A stretch of DNA of 53,411 nt from a virus (lineage: Duplodnaviria > Caudoviricetes): IMG/VR virus record IMGVR_UViG_3300034121_000706, positions 1-53,411 of that record; one strand, written 5' to 3'. The position numbers and the translations under genes are program-made. The notes under the pieces are model-generated. The model was not told the origin of the DNA and searched no databases. It saw only the letters and a list, made by a program, of their open reading frames with translations. Shown piece after piece: positions 19,301 through 53,411 of the stretch (position 1 is its first letter; each line of letters begins with the position of its first letter).

Positions 19301-22300
19301 TTGCATCGTCTTCTACAATATCGTTAATAGCGTTACTATTTATTTCGTCTTGTTGTGCTTTCACGTATGCCTGTACTTCATCGTACACTAATGTACTTTC
19401 CGCATCTGTCGGTTGTTTTACGACATTTGACGCTTGTTTCACTTTCTCTGCCAGTTCCACATACTTTGCAATATCACTAACGTCTAATGGATTTATAGTA
19501 GCAAAATCCTGTAATACCCCTGTAAGTTTACCCGACTGCACACCGCCCTTGCGTTTTGAACGTGCCTTAATTACTTCATATAATGTCTTTGCTTTTTGGT
19601 AAGTACGTTGGTCTGCTAAGTTTGCGATTTGGTTTATGATTTTACCTAAACGTACTGTACTGTTTTTCTCTACTGCGGTTGTGGCAAGGTTAATTAGTTT
19701 CTCTGCCTGTTTGCCCGTAATGCCGCCTAAATTGCCTTTAATTAATGCGGTGATATCAGCAACCATTTGTTTCTGTTGTTGCTTTAAACCCGCCTTATTT
19801 GCTGAATTATCGGCTTTTAGGTTATACACCAATAACTTGTATTTTATTTTTACCTTATCCGTTGCACTTAATGGCAGTGCTTCGTAAATCTTCTCTAATT
19901 GAGAAGTGGTAAACATCGCTTTTAGTGCAGGATTCTGTTTAATTTCTTCAATAAATGCGTCACGTTGGTCTGTATCAAAATTAAAGTCTGTTGCTTCTAA
20001 ATATGCTTGTGCTACATCGTATGCCTTTCCGATTTCTTCTTTTGATGGATTGTTGACTATCTGAAACAAAGGCTGTCCAAACTCTGCCATTTCTTTCAGT
20101 TCCGGTGTTATATCTATGGAATATTGGGTTGATGTTCCACCTGTTTCAGTTCCAGATGCCGCTTCTTGCGCTTGTTTCACGCTATTATACACACCAACTT
20201 TTTCTTCTCCACGCCATAATGTATATTTAATTCCGTCACTTGTGCCTATTTCATAGGTAATATCATCAAGTTCTGCTTTCCATTGTGGAAATTTACCTAT
20301 ATAACCAGTAACTTCCCAATCATTAAAGTAAACTTCATTTGAAGGTGAAGAATCAGATAATTTAACTTCAATTGCTTTCGGCTCTTGCTTAAACAAACTC
20401 TTTGCTACATTACCTACTATACCTAGACTACCTTCTGTTGGTGAACCATAAAAGCCTTTCATTCCTTTGCCACCAATTTTCAAATCCACTCCACGAACTG
20501 TATGAAATTCGGGGTTTTCTTTCATATTCTTTTTCCACTCTCTGCCCTTATTTCTATCAGCACCTTCAATAAGTTTTTGTGTCAAATCCTTACCAACAAT
20601 GCTTTCCATTTCTTGTGGCGTAACTTTCTTTCCGCTTCTTGAATATGGTTCAATTTCTTGCCCTTGTTTATCTTCTACAATTAGTTGATATGTTCCATCA
20701 TTGTTTTTACTTGCACTTGCAGCGTTAATTTGCTTACTCAAATCATATCTTTCATTCTGTTGCTCTCCTGTTGTCCAAGCTATTTTATCTACACCTTGTT
20801 TAACTGCTTCTTTAAGGGCTACTTTTAAACCAAGTTTAGTCCAAGCGTTTGTGTCGGTTACGAATGGTGCTTGTGGTGTTTTTCTTTCTTGATTAACTGC
20901 TTTATGCCATTTAAGCATTAAATCTTTATTGTCATAAGGCACTTGAAAATCATTAAGAATATCATTACTTTTAGCCATTGCCGTAGCCAAGCCTTTCCAA
21001 TCACTAAATCCTGCCGTTTCGTTCATTTTCTTCAAAACAACAACTGCATCTTTACCTAATTGAGTATCCCATTCAAAAGATGGTTCTTTAAATCCTTCTT
21101 TTTTCCCAGACTGCCCCCAATCGCTTTGTACTTCCTCCAAAAATAACACCTTATTGCCGTTCACATCGGTACGTGTATTCATTCTTAAATGAACAAGGAT
21201 ATTTGGCTCGTCAAAATGTGATGATTTGAATGTCTTTTTTCTTTGAGTATCAAGTTCGCTATTGTATTTAAAGCCTGAATAATATTTATTTAAAGCCTCG
21301 CTATAGCCACCTTTTTTCAAAGCATCCAAAGCCTCAATGGCTTCCGGATAATCCTTATCATTTTTAAATTCTTCACTTCTACCCTGTTCATCGTAAATTT
21401 TCATTCTACGCAAAGCACCTTCTGAATCGTTTAAGCCTAATTTTTCTAATGCCGGCTTGAGATACTTATCCCTAACTACATGATACGGCTCACCTTTTAT
21501 TTCTTTTTCAGGCATCGTAACCAACACCTCTTTGTAGTTGCTTTTTTCGCCTTCTAGTTGATAATCTGAGAATTTGGTTTGATTTCTAAAAGCCTCTTTC
21601 TTTTCGTCTGAGGACATATTGCGAATGTTGTCATTTATTTCATCAATTGCTATATCAATTGCATCTTCTTTGCCATCAGAATCATCTTTATATACTTCAA
21701 TTCTTCCATCATTATCAAAATTAACATACCATGATGTTTCATCTTCGTCAACAGAAGTTACATTGTTCCTGCGTATTTTTAATTCACCATCATCTTTCAC
21801 TACCTCAACAACTTCAATTCTATTTTCTTTTAGATACTGCTGAATTTCTGCTTTAGATACTGAACCTTGTTGTGAACTTAACCAATCCGTTAATCCTGTC
21901 CATTTCGCTTCATCGCCTTTGCCAAATTTATCTAGCCATTGTTTTGCCGGTAATTTATCAAATTTAGTTTCACCAATAATTTTTTCTAATGGAGAATAAA
22001 ATCCGTTTACTACTTCTGCGCCGCCATTAATTTCTTTTACCTTAATGTTTTCGCCTTGGAATGTAATTGTTTTTTCAGATGATTTCTGAGTACCAATTTT
22101 ACTATTTAAAATCTTACCACCCAATAATTCACCTACTACTTTTTTAGTGAACATATTGAACTTATCATCGGCACTAAGGTTTTTAATGCCTAATTTATCG
22201 CCTATGGTCTTAAAGAAATCAGATAGCCATTCTTTAAAGCGTTTCAGCATTGTAGGATTGCCATTGAATAACTGCTCACCTTTGTTTCCGATTGCAGTTA

Positions 22301-25300
22301 CAAGTGCTTCTGCCTGGATTTCAGCAATGGACTTTCCTTTGTATGCCGGATTCTTTTGTATCTCTGCGATTAATGCACGACCTTGTGGTGACAGTTTCAG
22401 TAATTCTATACCACGTTTAAATCCTTCGGGAAATACAGACTGCCATATGTGCCCGAATTCATGTATCGGTGTGTTTGCGTTAAGATTATCTGTATTTATG
22501 AATACTTTGCCATCGGGTGTTTTAAATCCGTAGATTGTGCCGTCTTTAGTTTTAACATCGGTTATCGCTATGCCTTTGTCTTGTAATTCTTTTTTAGCAT
22601 TTTCAAAATTATTCTTACCAAACAACTCTACTTTCACATTCGGAAATGCCTTTTTAAGTTTGTCTATCAGTTTCGTGAATACACTTTCTGATATTGGTGT
22701 GAATGATTTGTCTGTGGATTGTAGGTCTAAGTCTTTTTCTTCTTTGACTTGTTGGCTATTTTCGCTGCTGCTAATATCAGCGCTACTACCTTGCCTTTCC
22801 CCGCTTTTGTCTGTGGTTGTTTCGGTTGTTCCATTTGCTTGTTCATATTTTAGTGCTTCTTCCCAATTAATTGAACCATCTTCATTTACAAATTTAGCAT
22901 ATAAATCTGAATATTGCTTAAATTCTTTTTCATCAGATTCGGATATATTACTTAATGACTGCAATTCACTTTCAGATACATTATCATATTCTGATAAGAA
23001 ATCTGTTGTTTCATTTGCCTTCTGCGCCCAAAATAAATCTTCTCCGGTTACATCAATTCTCTCATAATTACCACCAAAACCACGTACAAGCGGTAACGAT
23101 TCCATGCTTCCGTACTCGTTTATTGCGTTGGCGACACGATTGATATTGGTAGATTCTGTTTTACCTGCGTCAATGTCTGCTTTTGCACGTCTGATTTCTT
23201 GCCAGGTTAAACCTAATTGCGATGCGTCAATATGATAATCAGTATCATTTCCGTTCCACTCAAACCAACTCTGTGCAATTTCTTTTACCTTTGCAATTAT
23301 ATCGGGAGATACCGAAACTTCTGTTGGTGCAATATTTATCTTTCTTATCTTCTTGCCTTTCTCGTTCAATACATCAATCTTATCACCTAATTTACCCTTT
23401 ACGGTATATCCTAAATCAGATGCAAGTTTCTGTATCTTCTGACGTATCTCTGACTTTCTTGTTTTCTTATTTGTCGGAGTAGAATTGTATTCACGCATTA
23501 AGCCAACTAATCTGTCGTGCTTATCGTTCTTTAGTTTCTGTTCGGATGATACTTGTTCAGCTTTCTTTTGTGGTTCTGCTTTGGGTTGTACTTCGTCAAC
23601 ATAAGACTTTTGCTCACCTTTAAACTTCACTTTTTCCTTATCGAATACCACTAATTCACCTTCTTGTGTCTTGCTTTCACGGAAATAGATACCATCGTAT
23701 CCTTGTGCCTTTAACTCGTTTGTGGTTAATTCAGCAAGTTTCTTTATTCCTTTATCGTTAAGATTGTCAAGCGTTACCCTACCATCAGGCAATTTTTGAT
23801 AGTCAACGGTATCAAATTCGTCAAACTTATCTTTATTGGCATTTAAAACTTCTTGTCTTTTGTCCACCAATCCATAGTCGCCGTTCTCCACCACAAGCGG
23901 ATTTTTGATGTCAACTTCTACCCTTTCTGCCTTATTGTCTTTGGTTTCGTAGCGATTGCCTTTTTCTGTGGAAACAAACGTGCCTAACGCTTGATTTTCA
24001 CCCATGTTTTTCCCTTTTACATGGGTAAGATTTTTGGATTTTATTTCATCAATAATAGCATTAGGCTTTTTTGTAAGTAATTCTTTTTTTAGATTATCTA
24101 CATATTTATCTACTAGCAATGCAGGTGGAACACCATTTGGATAATCTCTCTGTATTCTTTCTGCAATTATTACAGCATCATTTGCATTATCAAACTCAAT
24201 ATTTGATGCAGGCAATTGACTGTCTTTTTCACCAATATTTAACAGGACTTTATTGCCAAAGTCGTTTACTCTGTGTTTTTCAGTTTCATAATAAACATTT
24301 GAACCATTTCCTAATTGTCTAATAGGTTTTATCTCTTGTTCATTTTGTTGAACTTCTTTTCCGTTGGACACATTTTGTCCATCTCCTTGTTGAACTCCGT
24401 TATCGTTTTCTGGTGTTTGTTGTATTCCTGTGACGTTATTTTGTTCTTGCCCTGCGTTAATAGGTTCAACTGGTGTAATAGGATTCTCTTGCTCATCTTG
24501 TATTCTTTTATACTCTACATTCGCCTGATTAGATGCTTCATCTTGCGGTATAATTAATTCAGAACGGTCTTGTCCGAACTGCTCTTTCGCCTGTTCACGA
24601 TTAATAATTGTACCGTCTGACAGCTTAAACAACCCTTCCGCTTGTCTATCAACTTGCGAAATATCTTGTCCATCTGCTTGTGCTTTTAATATAGCTTCTG
24701 CATGGTTTTTACCTTCGTACTTCTTGCCATTAATATTGATAACCGCACTTGTAATTTGTACCGGTTCAACACCTTTCGGTTTATTCCTTACATCTGTTAA
24801 TGCGGATTTCTCTACTGTGATAATTCCATCTTCACCAATTTCAGGATTGTTGGTATTTATTACCACTTCACCATCTGCAAGGTCGTCAAGTATAGTAACT
24901 TCTGCACCATTGTAAGTTGCAATCTTATCTTCCTCTATCAGCGTATTCGGATTGGCAATATTACTCAATGCTTTTTCCTTGCCTTTATTGTACGTGCCGT
25001 CTGCAACTTCTTCTAAACGCTTATTAATGTCGTCTAACAGTAATTGATTCTTCTTATTCAACACTTCGTCATTCACCTGCGACATCGTATTTTTTAGCGT
25101 GTACTTTTTTAATAATAGTTCCGCTAAATCATCATGCAAATCTTCTTTAATAGTAGGCTTAACCGAATTGTACTGTTTCGATATTTCTTCAAATGCTTTT
25201 ACCTCGTAATCAAACTTACCTTGTTCAATATCTCCATCTGCCAACATCTTCTGTCGCATATCCACGAACTGTTGTGGATTATCAAGTGCGTTCTGTAATG

Positions 25301-27692
25301 CTATCTTGCGTTGTTCGGGTACTGAATTAGCAACTTCAATAGGTGTCATTAGTAAACTCGCCATCGTGGTAATCATAGCGGTTTCTATCGTCTGCTTGGT
25401 ATCAAAGAATGGTTTATTCAAATCTTCAAATCCTTGCTGACCGTTTTTCTGTGCTTTGGTATTGTAGTATGTTTCCGTTGCACGTTGTACTGCCGGTTCT
25501 AATACCAATTCCTCTAAGTTTTCACCGAACGTATTCTTTACACCTTCCTTAGCCATACGTTTAGCGTACTGTCCTATTGACATTTCGCCTGAACGGATTA
25601 ACTGCACATCTGCTTTGGATATATTGTTTGATATAAACTTACCTATACTTTTACTTGCCGTACCTTTTACGATATTGGCTTCCATTGGATTCACCAAAGT
25701 AACCATACCTGTCATTATAGACGTTAGTGTGGCAAAGTCATTCGCTTCTTGTGGTGTCAGTCCTGCTGTTAATCCGCTTTCGTACATATCTCCGTACATC
25801 TGTGCTGCGGAAACGCCTATTGTTGTTGCGGTTGATACCGTTCCTGCCGTTCCTGCACCCGCTACTAAACCTGTTGCACCGCCTGTCAATGCAGCAGTTG
25901 CCATCATCGTACCCATATCAAGTATCGTTGGTGTGGCTTTGGTAATTAATGTTGAGAAACTGAAATCACTTTCGGTTTTATATGCCGTTGGGTTTTCATT
26001 GTACTTATCTGTGATTTCCTTTTTAGTCTTATCATTTATATTCCTGAACTTATCATCACGTACATCGTTTTTAGGCTTACCGTTTTCATCTAACATTACT
26101 TTATAACCGTCTACATCTGCATACTTCTGTATAATATCACGTTGTACATCAGTAGCGGTAGGATTAAGTATGTCACGTTTCTTACTTGCGTAAATTGCCT
26201 GGTCGAACATTTTATCAAATACATCGTACTTGTTTTCGTCACCAATGGGATTTAAAATATCTAACATCTTTGGTACAGATGCCAATGCTTTTAGTGTTCT
26301 GCCTAATAGCTTATCGCCTTCATCTGCAACCTTTGCGCCTGTGAATGTTTTATCGGATTCTCCTGTAATCAAATTCTCTGCCATTACAACAGGACTTAAT
26401 TGAGATAGCGCACCCATAATATCACTCGCCTTTCCTAAGATACCTTTACTCTGATACGCTTTTTTCATCGCATCTTTTTTGGCTTGTGCCTTGTCGCCTT
26501 CATCTAATAATTTACGATATTCTGCAAATTCAGGTTTACTTATCTCTGAATTTGCATCATTAGTTAATTGGTTTATTTTGTCGTTTATATTAAGGTATGT
26601 TGTGAAATCTTCATCTTGTACTTTAGAATTTATACCTTCCTGTTTTTTTAGTATTTCTTCTCGTCTGCCATCTATATCTTTTTCAATCGCCTGTATCTGT
26701 GCTAACTTAGCATTGTACATAGGTTCAGCCTGTTCTTTTGGTAATTGATTTTCTGTAATCTGTTTTTCTATATCCTTTAATTCCAAAACAAGTTTATCGT
26801 ATTCAGATTTTCTTTTTGTAGAGTACAAACCAAACTGCTGTGCTTCTGCCTGTATCTGTGTATTCTGTTTTGCTATATCTGTAAAGAAATCTTCACCGAA
26901 CTTAGATTTTAAAACACTTTCGTATGACTTACCTCTATCATTTAATGCTCTTATCTGTGCATCGTAAATAGACATTTCACCATTATATGCCTGTGCGTTA
27001 TTATTAGAGTTTGACTGTATTTCAAAATCTAATTCTTCTGCCGTTTTATCTTTATTTAAAAAATATTTTAGTTGGTCTTTGTCTGTATTTAACAACTCCT
27101 CTGTTGATAGTGTATTCACAATACTAAGTTTGCTTACGGGAGTTATTCCTTTATCTAACACTACTGTATTATCAGAAGATTTGTCTGTAACATCAACTAA
27201 GTATGGATTTTCTTGTTGTGCTATTTCAGGTTGTTCAGAAACTGTTGTGCCTTGTCCTAAAATAGATTTATCGGCAAATCCTTTTTGTCCGTTATCTATC
27301 AAATAATCACCTGTAATTTGCTGTTCTTTTGTCGGTATTCCGATTGGCTTCTTTGTTGTTATTGGTGTTTTAGTGGTTGCTGTATTATTGAATGTAGGAA
27401 TTTTAAACATAGAACTATTAAAACCTAAATCTTGTGTAGTATATTTTAAAACTCCTACACCTTTAGTTGATGTTTGTTTTTGTGAAAACAGTTCGGGAAA
27501 TTTTGAGTTTATAGTTTTAAAGTCACTCTTGTATTGTGGATTGTTTGCTGTTGCCACATATTCTTGTAACAACTTTGTATCATATCCTTTAAGTTCAGGA
27601 AACTTTGAGTTTATAATATTCCAATCGCTTTTGTATTGCGGATTATTTGCAGTAGCAACATACTCCTGTAATATATCTTTTACTTCCGCCAT
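16380..27692 (-). CDS. Giant polyvalent internal virion protein (ART-like, zincin metallopeptidase and other domains)
   Basis: 3770 aa; Gly/Ala hydrophobic hairpins; GYDGI...EGELVVFD ART-like; NTPIHEFGHIW HExxH; SHFDEPN...LEEVQSDW domain; helical C-terminus. Confidence 0.8.
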   Translation of the reverse strand: MAEVKDILQEYVATANNPQYKSDWNIINSKFPELKGYDTKLLQEYVATANNPQYKSDFKTINSKFPELFSQKQTSTKGVGVLKYTTQDLGFNSSMFKIPTFNNTATTKTPITTKKPIGIPTKEQQITGDYLIDNGQKGFADKSILGQGTTVSEQPEIAQQENPYLVDVTDKSSDNTVVLDKGITPVSKLSIVNTLSTEELLNTDKDQLKYFLNKDKTAEELDFEIQSNSNNNAQAYNGEMSIYDAQIRALNDRGKSYESVLKSKFGEDFFTDIAKQNTQIQAEAQQFGLYSTKRKSEYDKLVLELKDIEKQITENQLPKEQAEPMYNAKLAQIQAIEKDIDGRREEILKKQEGINSKVQDEDFTTYLNINDKINQLTNDANSEISKPEFAEYRKLLDEGDKAQAKKDAMKKAYQSKGILGKASDIMGALSQLSPVVMAENLITGESDKTFTGAKVADEGDKLLGRTLKALASVPKMLDILNPIGDENKYDVFDKMFDQAIYASKKRDILNPTATDVQRDIIQKYADVDGYKVMLDENGKPKNDVRDDKFRNINDKTKKEITDKYNENPTAYKTESDFSFSTLITKATPTILDMGTMMATAALTGGATGLVAGAGTAGTVSTATTIGVSAAQMYGDMYESGLTAGLTPQEANDFATLTSIMTGMVTLVNPMEANIVKGTASKSIGKFISNNISKADVQLIRSGEMSIGQYAKRMAKEGVKNTFGENLEELVLEPAVQRATETYYNTKAQKNGQQGFEDLNKPFFDTKQTIETAMITTMASLLMTPIEVANSVPEQRKIALQNALDNPQQFVDMRQKMLADGDIEQGKFDYEVKAFEEISKQYNSVKPTIKEDLHDDLAELLLKKYTLKNTMSQVNDEVLNKKNQLLLDDINKRLEEVADGTYNKGKEKALSNIANPNTLIEEDKIATYNGAEVTILDDLADGEVVINTNNPEIGEDGIITVEKSALTDVRNKPKGVEPVQITSAVININGKKYEGKNHAEAILKAQADGQDISQVDRQAEGLFKLSDGTIINREQAKEQFGQDRSELIIPQDEASNQANVEYKRIQDEQENPITPVEPINAGQEQNNVTGIQQTPENDNGVQQGDGQNVSNGKEVQQNEQEIKPIRQLGNGSNVYYETEKHRVNDFGNKVLLNIGEKDSQLPASNIEFDNANDAVIIAERIQRDYPNGVPPALLVDKYVDNLKKELLTKKPNAIIDEIKSKNLTHVKGKNMGENQALGTFVSTEKGNRYETKDNKAERVEVDIKNPLVVENGDYGLVDKRQEVLNANKDKFDEFDTVDYQKLPDGRVTLDNLNDKGIKKLAELTTNELKAQGYDGIYFRESKTQEGELVVFDKEKVKFKGEQKSYVDEVQPKAEPQKKAEQVSSEQKLKNDKHDRLVGLMREYNSTPTNKKTRKSEIRQKIQKLASDLGYTVKGKLGDKIDVLNEKGKKIRKINIAPTEVSVSPDIIAKVKEIAQSWFEWNGNDTDYHIDASQLGLTWQEIRRAKADIDAGKTESTNINRVANAINEYGSMESLPLVRGFGGNYERIDVTGEDLFWAQKANETTDFLSEYDNVSESELQSLSNISESDEKEFKQYSDLYAKFVNEDGSINWEEALKYEQANGTTETTTDKSGERQGSSADISSSENSQQVKEEKDLDLQSTDKSFTPISESVFTKLIDKLKKAFPNVKVELFGKNNFENAKKELQDKGIAITDVKTKDGTIYGFKTPDGKVFINTDNLNANTPIHEFGHIWQSVFPEGFKRGIELLKLSPQGRALIAEIQKNPAYKGKSIAEIQAEALVTAIGNKGEQLFNGNPTMLKRFKEWLSDFFKTIGDKLGIKNLSADDKFNMFTKKVVGELLGGKILNSKIGTQKSSEKTITFQGENIKVKEINGGAEVVNGFYSPLEKIIGETKFDKLPAKQWLDKFGKGDEAKWTGLTDWLSSQQGSVSKAEIQQYLKENRIEVVEVVKDDGELKIRRNNVTSVDEDETSWYVNFDNDGRIEVYKDDSDGKEDAIDIAIDEINDNIRNMSSDEKKEAFRNQTKFSDYQLEGEKSNYKEVLVTMPEKEIKGEPYHVVRDKYLKPALEKLGLNDSEGALRRMKIYDEQGRSEEFKNDKDYPEAIEALDALKKGGYSEALNKYYSGFKYNSELDTQRKKTFKSSHFDEPNILVHLRMNTRTDVNGNKVLFLEEVQSDWGQSGKKEGFKEPSFEWDTQLGKDAVVVLKKMNETAGFSDWKGLATAMAKSNDILNDFQVPYDNKDLMLKWHKAVNQERKTPQAPFVTDTNAWTKLGLKVALKEAVKQGVDKIAWTTGEQQNERYDLSKQINAASASKNNDGTYQLIVEDKQGQEIEPYSRSGKKVTPQEMESIVGKDLTQKLIEGADRNKGREWKKNMKENPEFHTVRGVDLKIGGKGMKGFYGSPTEGSLGIVGNVAKSLFKQEPKAIEVKLSDSSPSNEVYFNDWEVTGYIGKFPQWKAELDDITYEIGTSDGIKYTLWRGEEKVGVYNSVKQAQEAASGTETGGTSTQYSIDITPELKEMAEFGQPLFQIVNNPSKEEIGKAYDVAQAYLEATDFNFDTDQRDAFIEEIKQNPALKAMFTTSQLEKIYEALPLSATDKVKIKYKLLVYNLKADNSANKAGLKQQQKQMVADITALIKGNLGGITGKQAEKLINLATTAVEKNSTVRLGKIINQIANLADQRTYQKAKTLYEVIKARSKRKGGVQSGKLTGVLQDFATINPLDVSDIAKYVELAEKVKQASNVVKQPTDAESTLVYDEVQAYVKAQQDEINSNAINDIVEDDAMTFFTVLDNKTKAKFGDDKTFDDLNEPQQREVFESITKDDIKKYGLTDEERDMVEAFKEIKTEQKRQDFITATYNKIGELKDLLANSVGVITQSPAEKEITDALLNVKLDDMTATEMARVLKLINGITQNNDYSGGGAFVAQQKAVEVNSKMNTLKSEIGEFRKLSEGGSKFRNFQQISVAMAKGKKLGAKLMEASGINNLMRGIAKTKTYSHNLQKAFKAEKFKSSVFEPISQMRQSIYAAVIQTKIGDDIKEAEHIARWKRIIEKNIENLRTINKEGYKEQADLLQKALDEVIGGRQQLKDIADNMSKIDSEGKRVVQFFTDNHAEQKPRFRENSLLFHNKEIEEYNSYTKLSITSLTGDTVRDTGEKLMNDARSTGITKKKSKSMIDRANYESLNDNTGLDFNFINRQMKALGDNEYDINTSADITTLANAFNSDNKQLRELLGAKNFDLLKKRLQTIVGTSKYEETTIVDDLLNEATKISRTIALGSITQVLKQSTVLMSTYLNSAGKGNIKGLDFTMLFGNKRQKENLQKLFAQSEIGARRAEGAGGYYDNTTIKKNISDGNAKKILKAIGKGRDFFSDLSMYPLRSFDILAADISWITFYKKYLRDNNLAFDENNEFKNPNKEAMAYAETMVQTAQGANTEAGQAEVWGSAKGLTQLALPFMSFAVQAKARLVDNTMNIANGDDRIEAGRDIGAYITEQIAFNAVKLGIGTFVATQLIPALLKELGLGDDDEEKETEAEKEKAELEKLRKAEQIKSSFVNNILQDLVYGTMPMVDNMATKPAINFLYNHIFKTNTGIIPNYNRSTDFNILSGGTVGVGYNQLLNLKDDINIITDNNAFGDYKSQSQVSVFTYKGKDYTIVHNGRYTRRDMFFNNVKGRMDVSNSTVPADVLKAFIENPSDFKLKEELRKTSSSQDGDLSLSLTDEQKTYAKIMLMADLLTFYGINETVFNQINNKVRGEMKKQIIKK
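27489..27671 (-). repeat. Two tandem 34-aa (102-bp period) repeats at N-terminus of giant protein
   Basis: LQEYVATANNPQYKSD(WNI/FKT)INSKFPEL occurs twice. Confidence 0.9.
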
Positions 27693-37423: not shown

Positions 37424-38011
37424 CTATAATTTATTTACATCTACATTATCAGCAGTATTCGTTTCAACCGTTTCCTTCTCCTTAACTTCCTCAATAACAT
37501 TATCCGGTACTTCATACTCAAAAGACAACTCCTTCTCAAAGAACTTAATCTGATCGTAGGTACTCTTTATCGTTTCATCCTTAATGCTCTTTGCCGTTGC
37601 ATTATATATCTTCACCTTCTCATCGGTATCATCCACATTCTTCAAACTCTTAATAAACTCCAACTGCGCATCCAGGTAATCTTCCAATACCTGTATCGTA
37701 TCACCAATCTTCTTACGTTTATTATTGTTTATGTCACGGTGATACACCACGATAGCATCCTCAACGTCTTTATTCTTTTTATCCAATATACGCTTACCTT
37801 TCACCGTTGGCTTATCCACCCACCACAACCCATCACATAACTTCAATGCCAGTAACCGTCTATCACCATCACTACGCATCCTGAATATTCCATTACTATC
37901 CGCCACATGAACCACATATTCCATTTCAGCACTATCCAACTTTGGAAACAGCTTCGCCAAACCCACATTGAGTTCAAATACATCTTTACCTGCTTCAATA
38001 CGGACTGTCAT
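37424..38011 (-). CDS. Possible terminase small subunit
   Basis: Helical 195 aa upstream of terL; EYV..V.D....FR pattern reminiscent of crAss-like TerS; function inferred. Confidence 0.4.
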   Translation of the reverse strand: MTVRIEAGKDVFELNVGLAKLFPKLDSAEMEYVVHVADSNGIFRMRSDGDRRLLALKLCDGLWWVDKPTVKGKRILDKKNKDVEDAIVVYHRDINNNKRKKIGDTIQVLEDYLDAQLEFIKSLKNVDDTDEKVKIYNATAKSIKDETIKSTYDQIKFFEKELSFEYEVPDNVIEEVKEKETVETNTADNVDVNKL

Positions 38012-39360
38012 AATTTCAGTTTACTTATTATCTGTGCCAATACGTTTACCACAATCGAATTACCTGCCTGTTTGTATGCCTGACTGTTGCTGACAACCGA
38101 GAAATCGAATGTATCGGGAAAATCCATCAAGCGGAAACATTCTCTTGGTGTTAACTTTCTAATCCTTTTACTACTCTCCACCGCATTCGTATCACCTGTA
38201 TCTAAACAGTACGTGATTCCATCTGTCCAGGACAGATGCCCTGTACCGCCTTTACCTGTCGTACTTGAACGTGGCATCATGTTGTGGACTACAATATCTT
38301 CAACCTCATACAATCCTGTCTTTGCACCCAATCCACCACCTTCTGATTTTATTGTACAAGCAATACCATTATCATCGTATATTCTGCCTGCATCAGAATT
38401 GTTTTCATACAAACTACCAACCTGTGTTAGCTGCGGGATTGCTTGTACTTCTATCTGTTTTGGTTGCTTATAGTCAGTTGCAGTTAAGCAATTCATTAAT
38501 TTACTGTTCTCGCTAAACACCAAACCTCTCTCACCGCCTTTTTCTAAATCACCGACTATATCGTAATCCTGATTCAACTTCAAAATATTATCACTAATAT
38601 CTAATGAAGATGAAGATGAAGTAATCGCACCCGCAACACCTTCCTCATCCTTAAAGTTTATCTTACCTGCATTAAAGTTATCAGCACAATTGTTAAAATA
38701 CTCCAACATCTTATCACTTAAATAATACTTTTCATCCACTTCACTTTCCAAAACATCTTTCAACCTTTTAGTCAACGGTATCTCTTTTGGAAAACTAAAC
38801 ACATTATCTGCATCATCACGAATACCTATAATAAACACCCTCTCCCGATTCTGCGGTACACCAAAGTCTTTTGCATTCAGAACCTTCCAGTACACATGAT
38901 ACGGTACTGCACCATCATACGGAAAAACAATAGGCATACCATTAACCGATTTACCACCCAAGAGATGCAACCACTCACTAAAAGTTTTACCACCATCATC
39001 ACTCAATAAGCCTTTTACATTCTCGAATATGAAATAACGTGGCTTGTTCTTAACTATAAACTCATGTGAATTGAAAAACAAAATACCTCGCTTATCATCC
39101 TTACCTAACCGCTTACCGGCTAAACTGAAACTCTGACAAGGAGGACTCGTCATATAAATATCCAAACTATCGCCAGGTATCTCCCTCTCATAAACATCAC
39201 TCGGATAATAGTCAGGCTCACCGTAGTTGTGTATATAAGTCAATCTTGCATACTTATCCTTATCACAGGCAAAAACAGTCTTATGTTTTATACCCAATCG
39301 CATCAACGACTGCTCAAATGCACCTACTCCGCTAAAATCAGAACCTACTCTTATACTCAT
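38008..39360 (-). CDS. DNA cytosine-5 methyltransferase
   Basis: FSGVG (I), PPCQSFS (IV), ENVKGL (VI), PQNRERVF (VIII), RKLTPREC (IX), QAGNS (X). Confidence 0.95.
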   Translation of the reverse strand: MSIRVGSDFSGVGAFEQSLMRLGIKHKTVFACDKDKYARLTYIHNYGEPDYYPSDVYEREIPGDSLDIYMTSPPCQSFSLAGKRLGKDDKRGILFFNSHEFIVKNKPRYFIFENVKGLLSDDGGKTFSEWLHLLGGKSVNGMPIVFPYDGAVPYHVYWKVLNAKDFGVPQNRERVFIIGIRDDADNVFSFPKEIPLTKRLKDVLESEVDEKYYLSDKMLEYFNNCADNFNAGKINFKDEEGVAGAITSSSSSLDISDNILKLNQDYDIVGDLEKGGERGLVFSENSKLMNCLTATDYKQPKQIEVQAIPQLTQVGSLYENNSDAGRIYDDNGIACTIKSEGGGLGAKTGLYEVEDIVVHNMMPRSSTTGKGGTGHLSWTDGITYCLDTGDTNAVESSKRIRKLTPRECFRLMDFPDTFDFSVVSNSQAYKQAGNSIVVNVLAQIISKLKL

Positions 39361-44930: not shown

Positions 44931-45004
44931 ACGGATCAAACTTCCACTAAACAGCAAGGTATTACCGGCAATTAATCAATTTTAAAACTAAAAATAATAA
45001 TTTT

Positions 45005-45256
45005 ATGAAAGTATTAATAAACACAATTTTCAGGGTAAATGTAGACGGAGAATTTAATTATATGTCTGTTAGAGAAATTGAACTATCAGGACTGAACACC
45101 GTACAACATAAAAGTAACGGATATTCACACGACTGGACAGAAATAGTGAAATTCTGCCCTGAAAGAGATACAGATTTAGAAATAAAGAACACAGTATATT
45201 TAACCAAACGACCAACCGGCAGAGTGCAGGGAAGTAGCACCGTATCATTTAGCTAA
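45005..45256 (+). CDS. Early hypothetical protein
   Basis: Follows leader repeat. Confidence 0.7.
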   Translation: MKVLINTIFRVNVDGEFNYMSVREIELSGLNTVQHKSNGYSHDWTEIVKFCPERDTDLEIKNTVYLTKRPTGRVQGSSTVSFS

Positions 45257-45318
45257 TCTTAAACCTCCACTAATCCGCAAGGCAGTAACAGAATTTTTAA
45301 CAAACTAAATTTAAGAAA

Positions 45319-45873
45319 ATGAATAACGCAGAAATAAATCTAAAAATGAACACATTAAATTTAAGAGAAATAGCAGAACTAAATGGACTGACTTACGCAG
45401 AATCAACGAGCGGAAATAATGGTTATCCAAGCGGAATTAAAGGCATTATTTTAGGCTTTGAAACATTCGAGGAAGCAGAAGAATTAGCCGAAAAACACGG
45501 ACTAAGTATCGAAACATTTAAGAAAAAAGACGGCTGGCAACTTTGGGAAAGAACCGGAAATAAAGCATACGAACCATTTAAAAATAGTTGTGATGATTAT
45601 GGTGACAATTACAGCCAGTTAGAAAAAATGAGTGAAAAAGTATTTTTTGAATCAGAGGTAAAAGACAGCCTTGAAAATTTCGACAATTTAGAAGATTTAC
45701 AAAATTTCTTATCTAAAAAACAAAATTTATTTGACGAAGTTGAAATTTTGGAAATTGACGAAATAGTAATTACTTGTCAAGGCGAATATTACGAAACTAT
45801 CAAAAAAACAAGCATGATTTTTTCGCACGACACAAAAACAATAGTTATAGGATTAATATACAGAAACCAATAG
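45319..45873 (+). CDS. Early acidic hypothetical protein
   Basis: Follows leader repeat; NGYPS...GFETFEEAE...DGWQLW. Confidence 0.8.
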   Translation: MNNAEINLKMNTLNLREIAELNGLTYAESTSGNNGYPSGIKGIILGFETFEEAEELAEKHGLSIETFKKKDGWQLWERTGNKAYEPFKNSCDDYGDNYSQLEKMSEKVFFESEVKDSLENFDNLEDLQNFLSKKQNLFDEVEILEIDEIVITCQGEYYETIKKTSMIFSHDTKTIVIGLIYRNQ

Positions 45874-45934
45874 CAAGAAACGTAAATTAAATATTTATAA
45901 AATTATATTAAATAACCTCTTAAAATTTACAGCA

Positions 45935-46168
45935 ATGAAGAACACAATATACATCAACGCAAAGGAACTGATTAAAAAAGAAGCCAAAACGCTTAAAACA
46001 CAGAACCCAAAAGATAAAGCGTATATAAGATATAATCTTAACAATTTAGCCAATGAATTAATAAAACAATTTAATTGGTATGCGATGAAAGAAATGATAA
46101 CACAGAAAAAAGCTACAACATACGCTTATTGGCTAAGTTCGTACACAGCAAAACAACAACCGAAATAA
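45935..46168 (+). CDS. Early hypothetical protein
   Basis: ORF with A-rich leader. Confidence 0.7.
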   Translation: MKNTIYINAKELIKKEAKTLKTQNPKDKAYIRYNLNNLANELIKQFNWYAMKEMITQKKATTYAYWLSSYTAKQQPK

Positions 46169-46250
46169 AGCGTAATTAATCAAACCACTTTAAACCTCCA
46201 CTAATCCGCAAGGCAGCAAAAGAATTATTAACAAAGTAAAATTTAAAAGT

Positions 46251-46463
46251 ATGAAAACAACATATAACGTCACAGAAGTTGAAAACCAAAAAGTACATAA
46301 ATTTAACACAATAAAAAAGGCGAAAGAATTTATTGAAAATTGGGGAATAACAAACAATCAACATACAGGTAAAGTAGATATTGACAAACGAACTATACTT
46401 TGGCATGTAGGAACATTTAAAAATCCAGTCATTCAATTTGAAAAAATAAACCACTTTAATTAA
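46251..46463 (+). CDS. Early hypothetical protein
   Basis: Follows leader repeat. Confidence 0.7.
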   Translation: MKTTYNVTEVENQKVHKFNTIKKAKEFIENWGITNNQHTGKVDIDKRTILWHVGTFKNPVIQFEKINHFN

Positions 46464-46478
46464 TCTAAATCAAACAAA

Positions 46479-46754
46479 ATGAACAAAGCACAAATCAAAA
46501 AAGCATTAGACTTTTACAAAGCATTAGCGCACCCCCTTAGTGATAAAATCCTACCGCTGATAAGCAAACGTGAATACCAGGTGCAAGAAATTTACAACAC
46601 CCTGAAATTGGAACAGTCAGCCGTAAGCGTACATTTAAACCGATTAAAAACGCATGGCATTGTATTATTCCGGCAAGACGGTAAGAAACGCCATTATAGG
46701 CTGAATGATGCAGTAATTGAGAAGGCGGAACAAGCTGCAAAGTTAGTATCTTAA
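46479..46754 (+). CDS. ArsR/SmtB (HlyU-like) HTH transcription regulator
   Basis: KALAHP...IL...V.EIY..LKLEQSAVSVHL..LK..GIV..RQDGK.R.Y.L. Confidence 0.9.
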   Translation: MNKAQIKKALDFYKALAHPLSDKILPLISKREYQVQEIYNTLKLEQSAVSVHLNRLKTHGIVLFRQDGKKRHYRLNDAVIEKAEQAAKLVS

Positions 46755-46803
46755 CTAAGGTGCAAGGTAGTAACAGAATTATTAACAAACTAAATTTAAG
46801 AAA

Positions 46804-49878: not shown

Positions 49879-50433
49879 ATGCAACTCAAAAAAGCAAAAG
49901 ATAATTGGGTTAATATTCCTTTTGATTATGAATATGAAATAACAAGATTCGGTCACGTTAGAAATATTAATACAGGAAACGTAATAAGGCATTTTACCAA
50001 TAGAGGTGGATATAAGTATTGCACAGTAAGCAACAGTGGTAGGAAAAGGAATATAATGATACATAGACTTATTGCACCTGTATTTATTCCAAATCCAAAT
50101 AATAAGCCATCTATTAATCACATTAATTGCAACAAAACAGACAACAGAATAGAAAACTTAGAATGGTGTACGCCAAAAGAAAATGCAATACACGCAAGGC
50201 AGAATGGATTAACTGTAAATCCGCCTTCACAAAATGGAAAACTTGGTAAACTCAACAGTACATCAAAGCCAGTAAGGCAGATAGATTTATCCGGCAATAT
50301 TATTCGTGATTATGATTGCGCAAGACAAGCTATGGAATACGGATTTACACCATCACATATTAGCAGATGTTGTAATGGAACAAAAGAAAAATACAAAGGA
50401 TATAAATGGACTTTCATAAATAAAAACAAATAA
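49879..50433 (+). CDS. NUMOD4-HNH-NUMOD1 homing endonuclease
   Basis: YEITRFGHVRN, HRLIA..FIPNP.NKP.INHIN.NK.DNR..NLEW, C-terminal NUMOD1-like domain. Confidence 0.92.
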   Translation: MQLKKAKDNWVNIPFDYEYEITRFGHVRNINTGNVIRHFTNRGGYKYCTVSNSGRKRNIMIHRLIAPVFIPNPNNKPSINHINCNKTDNRIENLEWCTPKENAIHARQNGLTVNPPSQNGKLGKLNSTSKPVRQIDLSGNIIRDYDCARQAMEYGFTPSHISRCCNGTKEKYKGYKWTFINKNK

Positions 50434-50437
50434 TAAA

Positions 50438-51385
50438 ATGGGAAAATTAAGACAGGCGACAAGAACAAGAGCCAAAATCAGATTAGGACTTTCAGCGGTT
50501 TCAGGTGGGGGTAAGACAATGAGTGCATTACTTATAGCTAAGGGTATTTGCGGTGATCTATCAAAAGTAGCATTAATAGACACAGAAAATGGAAGTGGTG
50601 ATTTATATGCACACTTAGGAAGCTATAACGTATTACCATTAGAACCCGATTTCACTCCTGAAAAATATATAAGTGCTATTCACGAATGCGAAAATGCCGG
50701 AATGGAAGTTATTATAATTGATTCCATAACGCATGAATGGGATGGCAAGGGCGGAATATTGGATATATCAAACTCAATGTCAGGGAACAGCTATACTAAT
50801 TGGGCAAAATTAACACCAAGACATCAAGCGTTTATTGATGCTATCCTACAATCAAAATGCCACATTATTACAACGGTAAGAAGAAAGCAGGATTACGAAA
50901 TGACAACCAATTCAAGTGGCAAGTTAGTTCCGCAAAAGGTTGGACTGAAAGAGGTAACAAGAGAAGGGTTTGAATATGAATTAACAATAAACTTAGAACT
51001 TGACACAAAGCACAATGCTTCTGCATCAAAAGACAGAACAGGTTTGTTTATTGGTAAGCCTGAATTTGTACCATCAGAAGAAACAGGGAAACTCATTAAA
51101 GATTGGTGCGAAACCGGTGTAGATGAAAGTACCGCCATTACAGACGCAGTTACAAAATTGGCTAACTGCAATACAGTAGATGAATTAAAAGCACTGAAAA
51201 TTGAATTACCTGACTTTGTGGTGAAATCACCAGTCTTTACCAAATCAGCAACAGAACGGTACAATGCTATTATAGCACAGTCACCGAAAGAACCGGCAGT
51301 AAATCAAGAATTAACCGAAGAAGAAAAGGCAGAGATAGCAAAGGAAGAAGCGGATTTATTTAGCAAACCCAAAAACAAGAAGTAA
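50438..51385 (+). CDS. AAA_24 / Sak4-like recombination ATPase
   Basis: SGGGKT Walker A, IDTENGS, IIIDSITHEW, FEYE, KDRT. Confidence 0.9.
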   Translation: MGKLRQATRTRAKIRLGLSAVSGGGKTMSALLIAKGICGDLSKVALIDTENGSGDLYAHLGSYNVLPLEPDFTPEKYISAIHECENAGMEVIIIDSITHEWDGKGGILDISNSMSGNSYTNWAKLTPRHQAFIDAILQSKCHIITTVRRKQDYEMTTNSSGKLVPQKVGLKEVTREGFEYELTINLELDTKHNASASKDRTGLFIGKPEFVPSEETGKLIKDWCETGVDESTAITDAVTKLANCNTVDELKALKIELPDFVVKSPVFTKSATERYNAIIAQSPKEPAVNQELTEEEKAEIAKEEADLFSKPKNKK

Positions 51386-51386
51386 T

Positions 51387-51557
51387 ATGCCAAAGGAATG
51401 CGAGGAATGTGACGGAACAGGTAAAGTATGTTATTCGTGCTGCGGTGACGACATAAAAGGAAATGACATTGATTTATGCCCTACCTGTTACGAGCATTGT
51501 AGCCTTGAAGAAGAAGATTGTGAATCGTGCAATGGAACAGGAATTATTGAAGATTAA
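51387..51557 (+). CDS. DnaJ-type zinc-finger mini-protein (56 aa)
   Basis: Hand-translated MPKECEECDGTG...CPTCYEHC...CESCNGTGIIED. Confidence 0.8.
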   Translation: MPKECEECDGTGKVCYSCCGDDIKGNDIDLCPTCYEHCSLEEEDCESCNGTGIIED

Positions 51558-51568
51558 AATAACCACCA

Positions 51569-51964
51569 ATGACAACCACAGAGCAAATAAATATGATTTA
51601 TTCAGACACACAAGGAAGCCTATACGTGCTGAAATCAGGTGCAGTGGAGTTATCTCTTAACTGCGAGAAAAGAACACGCAAATTAGGTCATTTTGGTACA
51701 CCGCCAAACGGTGTGTTGTCATACTATAAACATGAGAAAGAAAAAGATGTATTTCGTAAGACAAATGCATGGAGTATTAATTGGAATGTTATACAATACT
51801 TACCGAGTGACAGCAGTATGATAAACATTAAATCGGAAGGTGGTATTTACCGTATCAGTAAGGAGAAGGCATTGAAAATGGGTGAGTTCATGTTTTTTAA
51901 GAATGCCGGTATTGAGAAGAAGATTTACGTGCGGAAGATATTTTTTGATGTGGATGGGTTATAA
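51569..51964 (+). CDS. Hypothetical protein
   Basis: 131-aa ORF; its stop codon lies in the first TAAC of the array. Confidence 0.75.
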   Translation: MTTTEQINMIYSDTQGSLYVLKSGAVELSLNCEKRTRKLGHFGTPPNGVLSYYKHEKEKDVFRKTNAWSINWNVIQYLPSDSSMINIKSEGGIYRISKEKALKMGEFMFFKNAGIEKKIYVRKIFFDVDGL

Positions 51965-52080
51965 CGATTGGTGGCTTGGCGAAGTTGCCGAACACAAAAC
52001 TTCATTAGAATTACAAATTTTAAAATTAAGATAAAATGTCAATAGAAAACGAATACGGCAATTTTGCCAAACCGATGTTA
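51962..52080 (+). repeat. attC-like hairpin site A
   Basis: taacgattggtggcttggcgaagttgccg ... cggcaattttgccaaaccgatgtta, imperfect inverted repeat with unpaired bases. Confidence 0.8.
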
Positions 52081-52257
52081 GGCGAAGTGTATTTGGTTAA
52101 AAAAAATAAAAAGTTTATGAAAGGTCACGGATATAGCACATTAAATGGTTATAAATTTAATTGGACTTTTGATAAAAATGAAGCGAGGAAAATGGAGTAT
52201 TCAACTGCTAATAGTTTAGCTATATCAAGCGGTGGTTCTGTTTTACATTTCGCCTAA
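52036..52257 (+). CDS. Cassette-associated hypothetical protein
   Basis: Starts inside site A, ends at the TAA of the next TAAC. Confidence 0.7.
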   Translation: MSIENEYGNFAKPMLGEVYLVKKNKKFMKGHGYSTLNGYKFNWTFDKNEARKMEYSTANSLAISSGGSVLHFA

Positions 52258-52455
52258 CGATTTGCAGATTGGCGGTCGTTTTTTAACCAATTAAATAAAC
52301 GAAAATGGAATTACAAACAGCAATAGAAATACTTGAATACCATCAGGAATGGAGATTAGGTAAAAGAGAAGATATGATTCACGAACCTAAAAAACTGATA
52401 GAGGCTTTGGATATAGTACTAAGCGAGGTTAAAAAATTTCGCATAGGTGCTGTTA
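52255..52455 (+). repeat. attC-like site B (arms poorly matched, chimeric)
   Basis: Left arm resembles site E, right arm taggtgctgtta shared with site C. Confidence 0.6.
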
Positions 52456-52556
52456 GCGGTTCGTTGCTTGATGATAAGTGGAAACAATATAGAAATATTA
52501 CTAATAATGAAGATGCTTGGTGCTTTAAAGAGTGGTTAAAAAGCAATGACCGCTAA
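52305..52556 (+). CDS. Cassette-associated hypothetical protein
   Basis: Starts inside site B, ends at the TAA of the next TAAC. Confidence 0.7.
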   Translation: MELQTAIEILEYHQEWRLGKREDMIHEPKKLIEALDIVLSEVKKFRIGAVSGSLLDDKWKQYRNITNNEDAWCFKEWLKSNDR

Positions 52557-52679
52557 CGGTTCGCAGCTAAACGAGGTGGCTGATTATACCTCGAAACTTT
52601 AATTAAAGGAACAAAATTATGAATATAGACAAAACTCAATCAGAAGCAGAAAGCCAGCCATCTTGTTTAGGTGCTGTTA
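52554..52679 (+). repeat. attC-like hairpin site C
   Basis: taacggttcgcagctaaacgaggtggctg ... cagccatcttgtttaggtgctgtta. Confidence 0.8.
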
Positions 52680-52912
52680 TGCGTAGTGTTTCTGATGTTA
52701 TCAAAGAAGGTAGTATAGTTTGGGTAAAATCATCTAACCAACAAATTCATTGTGGAAGGGTGGATAAACTTTATCCCGAAACAAATGAAGCAATGGTATT
52801 TAATTTTGATGCTTGGACACATTGGCAAGTATCTTATGATAATATTGTAAGAGTAGGGGTAAAACATTTTAACGGTGATGGGTACAATGATTGGATGTCT
52901 AGGCTTCCTTAA
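52619..52912 (+). CDS. Cassette-associated small SH3/KOW-like protein
   Basis: Starts inside site C; IKEGSIVWV...GRVDKL beta-barrel pattern. Confidence 0.7.
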   Translation: MNIDKTQSEAESQPSCLGAVMRSVSDVIKEGSIVWVKSSNQQIHCGRVDKLYPETNEAMVFNFDAWTHWQVSYDNIVRVGVKHFNGDGYNDWMSRLP

Positions 52913-53034
52913 CATTACGCATAACTAATCGCTAACACTTTAAAATGTACGCACAAATAAAGCCTACAACGTTTATTAGAAATGCTATAAGAGATATGGA
53001 AAGTGAATTGCGTAGTCGGTATTAGAATTACCGC

Positions 53035-53083
53035 TAACGTTCCTCAGATTGGCGGTCGTTTTAATGCTGCCAATGTGCTGTTA
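53035..53083 (+). repeat. Short attC-like hairpin site E (49 bp)
   Basis: taacgttcctcagattggcggt ... gctgccaatgtgctgtta. Confidence 0.75.
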
Positions 53084-53110
53084 TATTTAGGTTTTTAAAA
53101 CTTTAGACAA

Positions 53111-53311
53111 ATGACATTAAAAGAATTAAGAGAAAAAAGAAAGAAAGCAGAACCATTTTTTAGCGATTGCTGCAAAAAAAGTTTTGTTGGAAAAAGTAAT
53201 GGTTTATACACATACTATGTTTGTGAATGTGGCAAAAAAACAACACCAATAAACGGCAAAGGAAAAATGCTTGATTTATACGGATTAGTTAAACGAGTTT
53301 TAAAAACTTGA
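53111..53311 (+). CDS. Cassette-associated small Cys/Zn-binding protein
   Basis: SDCC...YVCECGK; wholly enclosed between 23-bp inverted repeats. Confidence 0.7.
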   Translation: MTLKELREKRKKAEPFFSDCCKKSFVGKSNGLYTYYVCECGKKTTPINGKGKMLDLYGLVKRVLKT

Positions 53312-53355
53312 ATATAACGATTAACAGATTTATTTAGTTTATTAATTTATATATC

Positions 53356-53411
53356 ATGGAAGAAATAAAGAAAATATTTGAAGAAATAATGGATTATCAG
53401 ATGAATAATGT
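53356..53411 (+). CDS. Partial ORF in next array unit
   Basis: ATG at 53356 after TAAC 53315; runs off window. Confidence 0.5.
   Translation, partial: MEEIKKIFEEIMDYQMNN

Follow-up and report, generated by a model that had tools for sequence, protein, structure and literature searches.

Integrons are the textbook gene-capture device. The pdif or Xer modules of Acinetobacter plasmids consist of genes between inverted sites that are moved by an Xer-type recombinase encoded outside the module, and the pdif sites are 28-bp, double-stranded, dif-like sequences with sequence-specific arms. The promoter/stem-loop cassettes (PeSLs) of T4-type phages are small accessory open reading frames (ORFs) with repeated stem-loop linkers, shuffled between relatives, and their exchange is thought to be homologous recombination at the promoter-bearing repeats. 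Integrons are reported to be rare in phages by Qi et al. 2023 (PMC9892861), according to whom the screening of 10,705 phage genomes with IntegronFinder and HattCI gave 17 clusters of attC sites lacking an integron integrase (CALINs). The same study describes a CALIN with two predicted attC sites and two methyltransferase genes in the virulent Polaribacter phage P12002L, and reports that IntI1 recombined one of these two sites into attI1 in Escherichia coli. Phage CALINs are thus already known in print. In this work we analyse a stretch of phage DNA of 53,411 nucleotides, IMG/VR record IMGVR_UViG_3300034121_000706 (the window, by which we always mean the whole stretch), and in particular its segment 51962-53411. 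We consider this segment, with a probability of about 0.75, to be a cassette array without a recombinase of its own, in which small gene segments alternate with folded-DNA, attC-like recombination sites. An original prediction, made from the letters of the window, had called it an integron-like gene-cassette array inside a phage. Our comparison supports an array that is integron-like but not a canonical integron, since it fails on the integrase and on several details of the sites.

The original prediction listed ten core positions and all of them are correct, namely TAAC at 51962, 52255, 52554, 52922, 53035 and 53315 and GTTA at 52077, 52452, 52676 and 53080. The regular alternation that it saw in them holds in part: the ten picked sites pass independent tests, but they are six of 12 TAAC and four of 11 GTTA, and the bare 4-mers occur in the region at chance frequency (12 and 11 versus 7.9 and 10.4 in 500 shuffles; shuffle controls were full block shuffles). 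Similarly, TAACG occurs 111 times in the whole window versus 112 expected. A feature absent from the prediction is that the gene segments are bracketed, with GTTA followed by a sequence X at the start and the reverse complement of X followed by TAAC at the end. Cassette 1 (52077-52258) begins with GTTAGGCGAA at 52077, which is complementary to TTCGCCTAAC ending at 52258. Cassette 2 (52452-52557) begins with GTTAGCGGT at 52452, complementary to ACCGCTAAC ending at 52557 and also to a copy ending at 53038, and cassette 3 (52676-52925) is bracketed by GTTATGCGTA at 52676 and the complementary TACGCATAAC ending at 52925. In cassette 5 (53080-53318) the sites at 53080 and 53315 form terminal inverted repeats of 23 nt. 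The complementarity therefore amounts to 9-10 perfect bases in three segments and to 23 nt at 91% in the fourth. Pairs having at least five extra complementary bases number five in the region versus four in the other 51.9 kb, and in 500 shuffles of the region such pairs averaged 0.058 and never exceeded 2; one of the five, 52096/52284, is an A/T run and probably due to chance. The same rule for cassette ends is obeyed in the Flavobacterium siphophage mumin6-1 (four cassettes, those of methyltransferases included), in the locus L008 (seven consecutive cassettes), in L003-L005 and in bacterial arrays. Complementary ends imply that a circularised unit would rebuild a longer hairpin, and such ends of gene segments are a hallmark of integron cassettes.

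The junctions between these segments, all on the + strand, share a plan: TAAC and GTTA form the outer pair, unpaired spacers of unequal length (5-6 versus 1-2 nt) separate it from an inner stem, and a variable loop closes the stem. The last ordinary gene before the array (51569-51964, +, 131 amino acids (aa), no family) has as its stop codon the TAA of the first core, and it was rightly noticed at the outset that the ORFs 51569-51964, 52036-52257 and 52305-52556 terminate with the TAA of a TAAC. The three segments that had been taken for imperfect hairpins, A, C and E, indeed have 18, 19 and 11 pairs, with 5-6 unpaired bases after TAAC and 1-2 before GTTA. Junction hairpin A (51962-52080, 119 nt, imperfect stem of 18 bp) runs from TAAC through an unpaired 6-nt spacer, the stem, an A-rich loop of 65 nt with an ATG at 52036, and a 2-nt spacer to GTTA. 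Junction B (52255-52455) is a hairpin of the short type split within its loop: its 5' half lies at 52255-52282 and its 3' half at approximately 52438-52455, an insert of about 150 nt with an ATG at 52305 separates the two, and its 3' arm is also found behind intact short hairpins in L188 and L231. Junction hairpin C (52554-52679, 126 nt) has a 19-bp stem and an ATG at 52619 in its loop. Junction D (52922-53034) is a stump: after TAACTAATCGCTAAC the remainder of the hairpin is missing, and a mini-ORF of 26 codons and another ACCGCTAAC end follow instead. It does not fold (z of +0.43 as single-stranded DNA, ssDNA), and at its place the related locus L318 retains an intact short hairpin, the alignment diverging 12 nt past TAAC. 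Junction hairpin E (53035-53083, 49 nt) is of the short type, with the conserved loop TCGTTTTAATG, and core F opens a further unit (53315-53411, ATG at 53357) that is cut off by the contig end. Hairpins A, B, C and E all lie on the + strand inside 1.1 kb. A stem of at least 18 pairs was seen in one of 60 whole-window shuffles, whereas the real window has two, 470 nt apart and on one strand. When both strands were folded as ssDNA, the + strand of A, C and E was superior, with z-scores of -1.43 (15 of 200 shuffles equal), -2.73 (0/200) and -2.00 (8/200), respectively; the corresponding - strand values of -0.22, +0.13 and -0.64 are no better than those of shuffles.

In each of the three long junctions of the window (A, B and C) an ATG stands in the loop behind an A-rich leader and in frame with the next gene, and from this ATG the frame runs across GTTA and stays open until a stop in, or next to, the following core. 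Hence the ORF 52036-52257 (73 aa) has its start in loop A and its stop in TAAC, with the core read in frame between them; the insert of junction B makes up the first 49 codons of the ORF 52305-52556, of which cassette 2 holds the C-terminal 33 codons; and the ORF of cassette 3 is 52619-52912 (97 aa). Cassette 5 carries the ORF 53111-53311, whose 66 aa include Cys pairs resembling a zinc ribbon. PHROGs and Pfam gave no function for any of the five cassette ORFs. The combination of an in-frame loop ATG and an A-rich leader was also present in 48 of 121 long candidate hairpins of viral loci. The homologue of cassette 1 in L313, L315 and L316 has three different upstream starts and an identical frame, which indicates that the first codons are contributed by the context and not by the cassette. 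The junction may thereby double as a translation start that would give the next gene its first 14-49 codons.

The expectation that units are gained, lost or reordered at the cores was borne out in relatives and in four other lake metagenomes. The locus L313 is the same as the window up to CATTTCGC, then lacks 299 bases and resumes at CTAACGG; the missing part is exactly 52254-52552, that is hairpin B with cassette 2, and the direct repeat CTAACG flanks the indel. Cassette 1 is found in L314 and L315 at 91-93% identity with other hairpin types on both sides, the homology being limited to approximately 52066/52069 to 52259/52262 and ending within a few bases of GTTA and TAAC. Its homologues (81-95% at the aa level) occur in six viral contigs, in other junction contexts. 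Hairpin C and cassette 3 are common to L318 and L319 as one block (75%), and L316 shares 52084-52397 at 97.5%. This last locus, the closest one by nucleotide comparison, is a 75-kb viral contig with terminal repeats in which cassette 1 has its own short start and no upstream hairpin. In the closest relative by the AAA_24 ATPase encoded beside the array (L250, a 97%-complete contig, 75% aa), an array occupies the same genomic place with entirely different cassettes, including one for a 272-aa enzyme, and about seven of 51 relatives by this protein have hairpins tiled with bracketed cassettes, at varying places. Contigs of the four other lake metagenomes match single modules and break at 51962, 52081/52084, 52255/52259, 52551-52561, 52920-52925, 53035-53083 and 53314. 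A contig of run X5 matches 53035-53083 only, and the match of a run X3 contig begins at 53314. Among the 23 loose ends listed (of 48), 13-14 are no more than 4 nt away from a core, versus an expectation of about 2. A further joint in run X5, from 52680 to 53035, was rejected because its 26-letter side is too short to trust.

Of the homology segments, 69 start at TAAC and continue downstream versus 12 that come from upstream and stop at GTTA, although these classes are non-independent and dominated by a few repeated families. Ten high-scoring segment pairs (HSPs) span exactly TAAC to GTTA, i.e., one hairpin. An anchored comparison of flanks (16 and 7 informative pairs, non-independent and too small in number to decide) suggests that each arm may travel with its adjacent flank (3' arm, downstream; 5' arm, upstream). 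Taken over these comparisons, gains, losses and exchanges of units between phages are shown to fall exactly at the cores. The L313 indel, the contexts of cassette 1 in L314 and L315 and the four lake metagenomes thus support the original prediction in its assertion of a shufflable accessory-gene array in a phage. Neither of the outcomes that it had named as adverse was found, these being invariant gene order or breakpoints unrelated to the cores on the one hand and hairpins no better than shuffles on the other.

The hairpins belong to a family that is found well beyond the window. Hairpin A has 74% identity over 120 nt to a junction of mumin6-1 that lies between two DNA methyltransferase genes and begins at the stop codon of one of them; mumin6-1 contains no fewer than five junctions of this sort along with four bracketed cassettes, and the pattern of type A was found in six IMG/VR contigs. 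A pattern scan for the type of E gave at least 120 matches in the viral collection and at least 120 in the genome collection, and among the matches listed the short hairpin occurs in more than 100 viral contigs. As 18 fixed bases in 596 Gb lead to an expectation of about 120 chance hits in the genome collection, only hits confirmed by covariance model were used there (116 matches, 93 loci), and pattern hits lacking the second arm (Firmicutes, candidate phyla radiation (CPR) and others) were treated as random. Hairpin E scores 65.3 bits (E 6e-16) against covariance model R1, E itself being part of the R1 seed. In the window R1 detects only E, the long-loop A, B and C being beyond its reach, so that counts by R1 are lower bounds. 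In an alignment of 82 distinct viral short hairpins, 91% of cells are paired and TAACG, GTT and the loop TCGTTTTAATG are invariant, which is partly imposed by the search pattern; the AAC and GTT triplets are invariant in 10/10 cases in the window and in 82/82 in the alignment. The inner stem shows both-side changes in 10 of 12 pairs (219 cells), and the covariation score of 0.422 compares to 0.152 in shuffles (0/500 reach it) and to at most 0.10 with slid partners. The hairpin sites are therefore shown to be a conserved, covarying structure. Types A and C have the same stem bases and an enlarged loop. The 11-nt loop and its closing GG/CC pairs (e.g., 53056-53068) were observed not to vary among viral or bacterial copies, in contrast to the covarying stem, and model hits obtained without the pattern keep the loop as well, though part of the invariance is imposed by the search pattern. 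Since the loops of integron sites are not conserved, an invariant loop hints at a second binding partner. Rfam 15 covariance models gave no match at E <= 1 in 51500-53411 and only tRNAs in nine related loci.

We then asked of the family which strand folds. In phages the hairpin strand is the gene strand in 49 of 50 determinable flank sets, so that a role as RNA is possible there. In bacterial genomes 37 hairpins have both flanking genes on the opposite strand versus 10 with both on the same strand, and many of the latter cases resemble phage contigs binned into metagenome-assembled genomes (MAGs). G·T mismatches prevail over A·C mismatches on the TAACG strand both in viral copies (51:22) and in bacterial copies (108:26), and also in the 36 bacterial hairpins with flanking genes on the opposite strand (35:11). 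A G·T bias that stays on the TAACG strand whatever the direction of the genes means that the folding strand is set by the site and not by transcription. By this measure the strand starting with TAACG is shown to be under selection to fold, whichever way the neighbouring genes point, and the mismatch counts indicate a fold of single-stranded DNA, as in integrons, and not of mRNA. Intrinsic terminators are not in excess (one site, on the - strand, versus 1.3 expected).

The bacterial loci, on Bacteroidota chromosomes, are rows of co-oriented and unrelated accessory genes (hydrolases, esterases, a HipA toxin, an Argonaute with a nuclease, and many without a family match), with hairpins in one orientation between the genes and with the rule of end complementarity obeyed. 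One complete MAG chromosome has an array of about 38 kb with at least 17 model hits, and 1.4 kb beyond its last hairpin lies a tyrosine recombinase gene, truncated in that assembly. Homologues of this recombinase occur in three bacterial and three viral loci (two of the viral ones near-identical) that had been fetched by the hairpin pattern alone. Conversely, loci fetched by the recombinase protein alone have a hairpin within about 1 kb, with one strong hit (43.6 bits) and three weak ones. In a sample of 101 genomes from one Bacteroidota family, short hairpins are present in 50 and the recombinase in 70, and six of the 101 carry the two 0.45-5.2 kb apart on one contig. The best family of the recombinase is 'XerA / integron integrase' NF040815 (up to 229 bits). 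The scores against the integron integrase model TIGR02249 are 136-208 bits, below the cut-off of 265 in seven of seven proteins, and the alignment falls into two pieces, with model positions of about 182-239, the site of the IntI-specific region, left out between them. By sequence, the closest solved relatives are XerA proteins, followed by IntI4 in two pieces. None of the five array-bearing bacterial genomes has a recombinase above the integron-integrase cut-off. The bacterial recombinases have an extra N-terminal domain of about 75-140 residues, and the viral forms are of 267-271 aa. In the genome of locus L050 (G002), 25 matches to the recombinase family come in sets of identical length (frames of 371, 315 and 256 aa), and the gene appears from these sets to be multi-copy and mobile. 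As for the window, the absence of an integrase from view was confirmed: PF00589 has no match in its six frames, and none among its 64 ORFs. The tyrosine recombinase of the 75-kb contig L316 was set aside as of another type, encoded beside a DnaB helicase and with no hairpin within 1.5 kb.

How does the array compare with the described systems? In P12002L (L009, 29998-38946, - strand) model R1 finds five sites on the gene strand with E <= 7e-5, flanking three methyltransferase genes and a Mom-like gene; the published analysis gives two attC sites. The hairpin between its methyltransferase genes gp36 and gp35 has a loop identical to that of the window's E, and the gp35 gene is bracketed by GTTAGGCAC and GTGCCTAAC. 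With the same hairpin family in P12002L, the window's array is a member of a kind already reported in phages, and both are integrase-less arrays in Flavobacteriia phages. The available part of PMC9892861 treats the P12002L sites as integron attC and is without the hairpin family, the Xer-like recombinase, the inverted polarity or the ORFs that cross cores. In the literature that we searched there was no description of the hairpin family, of its Xer-like recombinase, of the inverted polarity in phages or of start codons in loops.

The present system resembles sedentary chromosomal integrons in its sites, which fold from a single strand and combine paired AAC/GTT and an inner stem with unpaired spacer bases and a variable loop. 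It also resembles them in that every cassette starts with a complement of its own inverse core, that one strand is favoured, and that Bacteroidota chromosomes have long arrays in which unrelated accessory genes point the same way and a tyrosine recombinase gene lies at one end. Unlike integrons, it has a linked recombinase without the IntI-specific insertion (an insertion that Smyshlyaev et al. 2021 call 'not fully conserved' in their integron-like subgroup), an outer complementarity of 9-14 nt or more instead of 7, an invariant 11-nt loop in the short type, phage genes on the folding strand, so that the polarity of the sites is inverted relative to bacterial arrays, and start codons in loops. 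The attC grammar claimed in the original prediction therefore stands for the architecture, the cassette ends and the gain or loss at cores, and not for the full 7-mers, the IntI-specific integrase or cassettes holding whole ORFs. Specifically, A, C and E are imperfect palindromes of 119, 126 and 49 nt with AAC/GTT outer boxes, but the full RYYYAAC is present in one of six inverse cores (GCCTAAC, 52251) and GTTRRRY in one of four cores (GTTAGGC, 52077). There is no integron integrase in the window and the recombinases linked to hairpins elsewhere are below the TIGR02249 cut-off; the ORFs starting at 52036, 52305 and 52619 begin in the preceding loop and cross the core. An attI site or a common promoter was not found, no systematic search for either having been made. 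Provided that its hairpins are taken to be attC-like, the segment counts as a CALIN, with A, B, C and E in one orientation on a contig without a recombinase. In comparison to pdif sites, the arms here vary and covary, which argues for recognition of a folded structure, and in comparison to PeSLs there are in addition the complementary cassette ends, the strand-specific folding and the linked tyrosine recombinase.

The mechanism that we propose would start with the TAACG strand folding when single-stranded. A tyrosine recombinase would cut at TAA|C with the chemistry of integron bottom-strand cleavage, and replication would resolve the exchange. In bacteria the mobile unit would be a gene with the hairpin downstream of it; as phage genes are on the folding strand, the unit there would become a hairpin with the gene downstream of it. 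The L313 indel, the block of hairpin C and cassette 3 and the 69 versus 12 homology segments would fit a unit of this kind. The enzyme is probably an XerA/IntI-like recombinase, encoded either by the host or in the two thirds of the phage genome that the contig does not cover.

Several results weigh against a recombination-based cassette array, or at least complicate it. Neither has recombination been directly observed nor a circular cassette seen. The other array-bearing phage records do not encode a tyrosine recombinase (0/5, a 97%-complete contig and the complete mumin6-1 included). At the level of genomes the recombinase is not associated with the hairpins, being present in 36 of 50 hairpin genomes versus 34 of 51 without hairpins, and only positional proximity is therefore informative. 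The stability of the hairpins in the window is modest (in the case of A, 15 of 200 shuffles fold equally well); thermodynamics by itself gives modest evidence, and the strong evidence comes from comparison. Integron sites have nothing equivalent to the invariant loop TCGTTTTAATG, which the model does not explain, and the foreign hairpins on both sides of cassette 1 in L314 and L315 are not explained by a rule of one hairpin plus one gene. There are also chimeric hairpins (L188, L231, L236 and L241) with the 5' arm of one type and the 3' arm of another joined in the conserved loop, which implies that homologous exchange in the loop contributes as well. In L241 the loop is duplicated in tandem. 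Finally, a contig of run X4 joins 52475 to 52983 through 74 other letters that replace 52476-52982, and this joint is off-core.

Homologous swapping at linkers has been proposed for the promoter/stem-loop cassettes of T4-type phages, and the hairpins might likewise be RNA elements between cistrons, with a function in processing, stability or translation start, and conserved linkers at which genes are swapped by homologous recombination. Such an explanation can draw on the coincidence of hairpin strand and gene-sense strand in phages (49/50), on long loops with an A-rich leader and an in-frame ATG, on the better folding of the + than of the - strand and on the loop-joined chimeras. However, it does not account for the bacterial G·T bias on the TAACG strand where genes are opposite (35:11), as the mRNA would there carry A·C mismatches, and it leaves both the 9-23-nt complementarity of segment ends and the nearby dedicated recombinase unexplained; Rfam matches and a terminator-like excess (1 versus 1.3) are lacking too. 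We consider it unlikely, although a role in translation start may well coexist with recombination. Chance is refuted for practical purposes: in an A+T-rich genome 4-mers such as TAAC and GTTA are common, and they do occur at the expected counts, but the cassette ends, the stems, the covariation and the breakpoints at cores all speak against coincidence.

It is quite unlikely, in our judgement, that the array is a decayed canonical bacterial integron of the IntI type acquired by the phage, that is a CALIN in the strict sense. None of the five array-bearing bacterial genomes has an integrase above the cut-off, all seven proteins score below 265 bits, the 7-mer consensus is mostly absent and the polarity of sites versus genes is inverted in phages, and these points stand against a site architecture and a complementarity of cassette ends that are as in integrons. 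The literature can be cited on both sides, since according to PMC9892861 IntegronFinder and HattCI call two P12002L sites, one of them recombined by IntI1, whereas the IntegronFinder 2.0 paper describes almost no integrons in Bacteroidetes. We regard as very unlikely that the hairpins are non-autonomous mobile elements, similar to miniature inverted-repeat transposable elements (MITEs) or moved by HUH or IS200-IS605 enzymes, that land after stop codons. The inverted terminal TAAC...GTTA, a conserved loop as at HUH nicking sites and homology segments exactly one hairpin long (the ten HSPs, and the X5 contig at 53035-53083) would suit mobile hairpins. Against them, target-site duplications are absent: the two flanks of a hairpin are unrelated, and it is the two flanks of a gene segment that are complementary. 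Moreover, the stems covary instead of keeping their sequence, and no such transposase was found among the 64 ORFs of the window or 92 ORFs of 14 bacterial loci.

Returning to the cassette array with attC-like sites, a broader possibility, for which we see about even odds, is that of a second kind of integron common to Bacteroidota and virulent phages. It would combine a compact XerA/IntI-like enzyme that lacks the insertion deemed essential for recognising folded attC sites, sites reversed in phages so that coding and folding strand coincide, loops giving a start codon and an N-terminal 'head', events that both swap genes and fuse heads to bodies, and one pool shared by phages and hosts (e.g., of orphan DNA methyltransferases). 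The same hairpin grammar is found in more than 100 viral contigs (among the matches listed), in 50 of 101 genomes of one Bacteroidota family and in three unrelated groups of cultured or sequenced phages. If the mechanism were confirmed, it would account for the exchange of small early genes and anti-restriction methyltransferases among virulent phages that have no integrase, the integron would be more broadly defined, and there would be a natural example of recombination sites that also serve as translation starts.

The contig has open ends and makes up the entire IMG/VR record, and its completeness is estimated by CheckV at about 36% of the genome. By ORF annotation with Pfam and PHROGs it is from a tailed phage with distant crAss-like virion genes, namely those for a muzzle C-terminal domain, tail ring proteins 1 and 2, a P22-type portal and the large terminase. 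Among these virion genes there is an ORF of 3770 aa (16380-27692, - strand) with no Pfam or PHROG match. Many small early genes lie on the + strand from about 40 kb onward. Upstream of the array and outside it is an HNH endonuclease gene of the HNH/NUMOD4 homing type (49879-50433, +), followed by the gene of the AAA_24 ATPase (50438-51385, +), just downstream of which the array begins. A C-5 cytosine DNA methyltransferase is encoded at 38008-39360 (-), also outside the array; cassettes of related phages often encode methyltransferases themselves. The nameable nucleotide relatives are Flavobacterium phages, and the sequencing runs with a matching stretch are lake-water metagenomes. A second family of intergenic repeats was noticed at 44936-46802, with four copies of about 59 nt at 64-88% identity to the reference copy, each directly upstream of a small early ORF. 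These repeats have a conserved A-rich leader of 28 nt ending in ATG, and this leader recurs at 52280-52307 within junction B.

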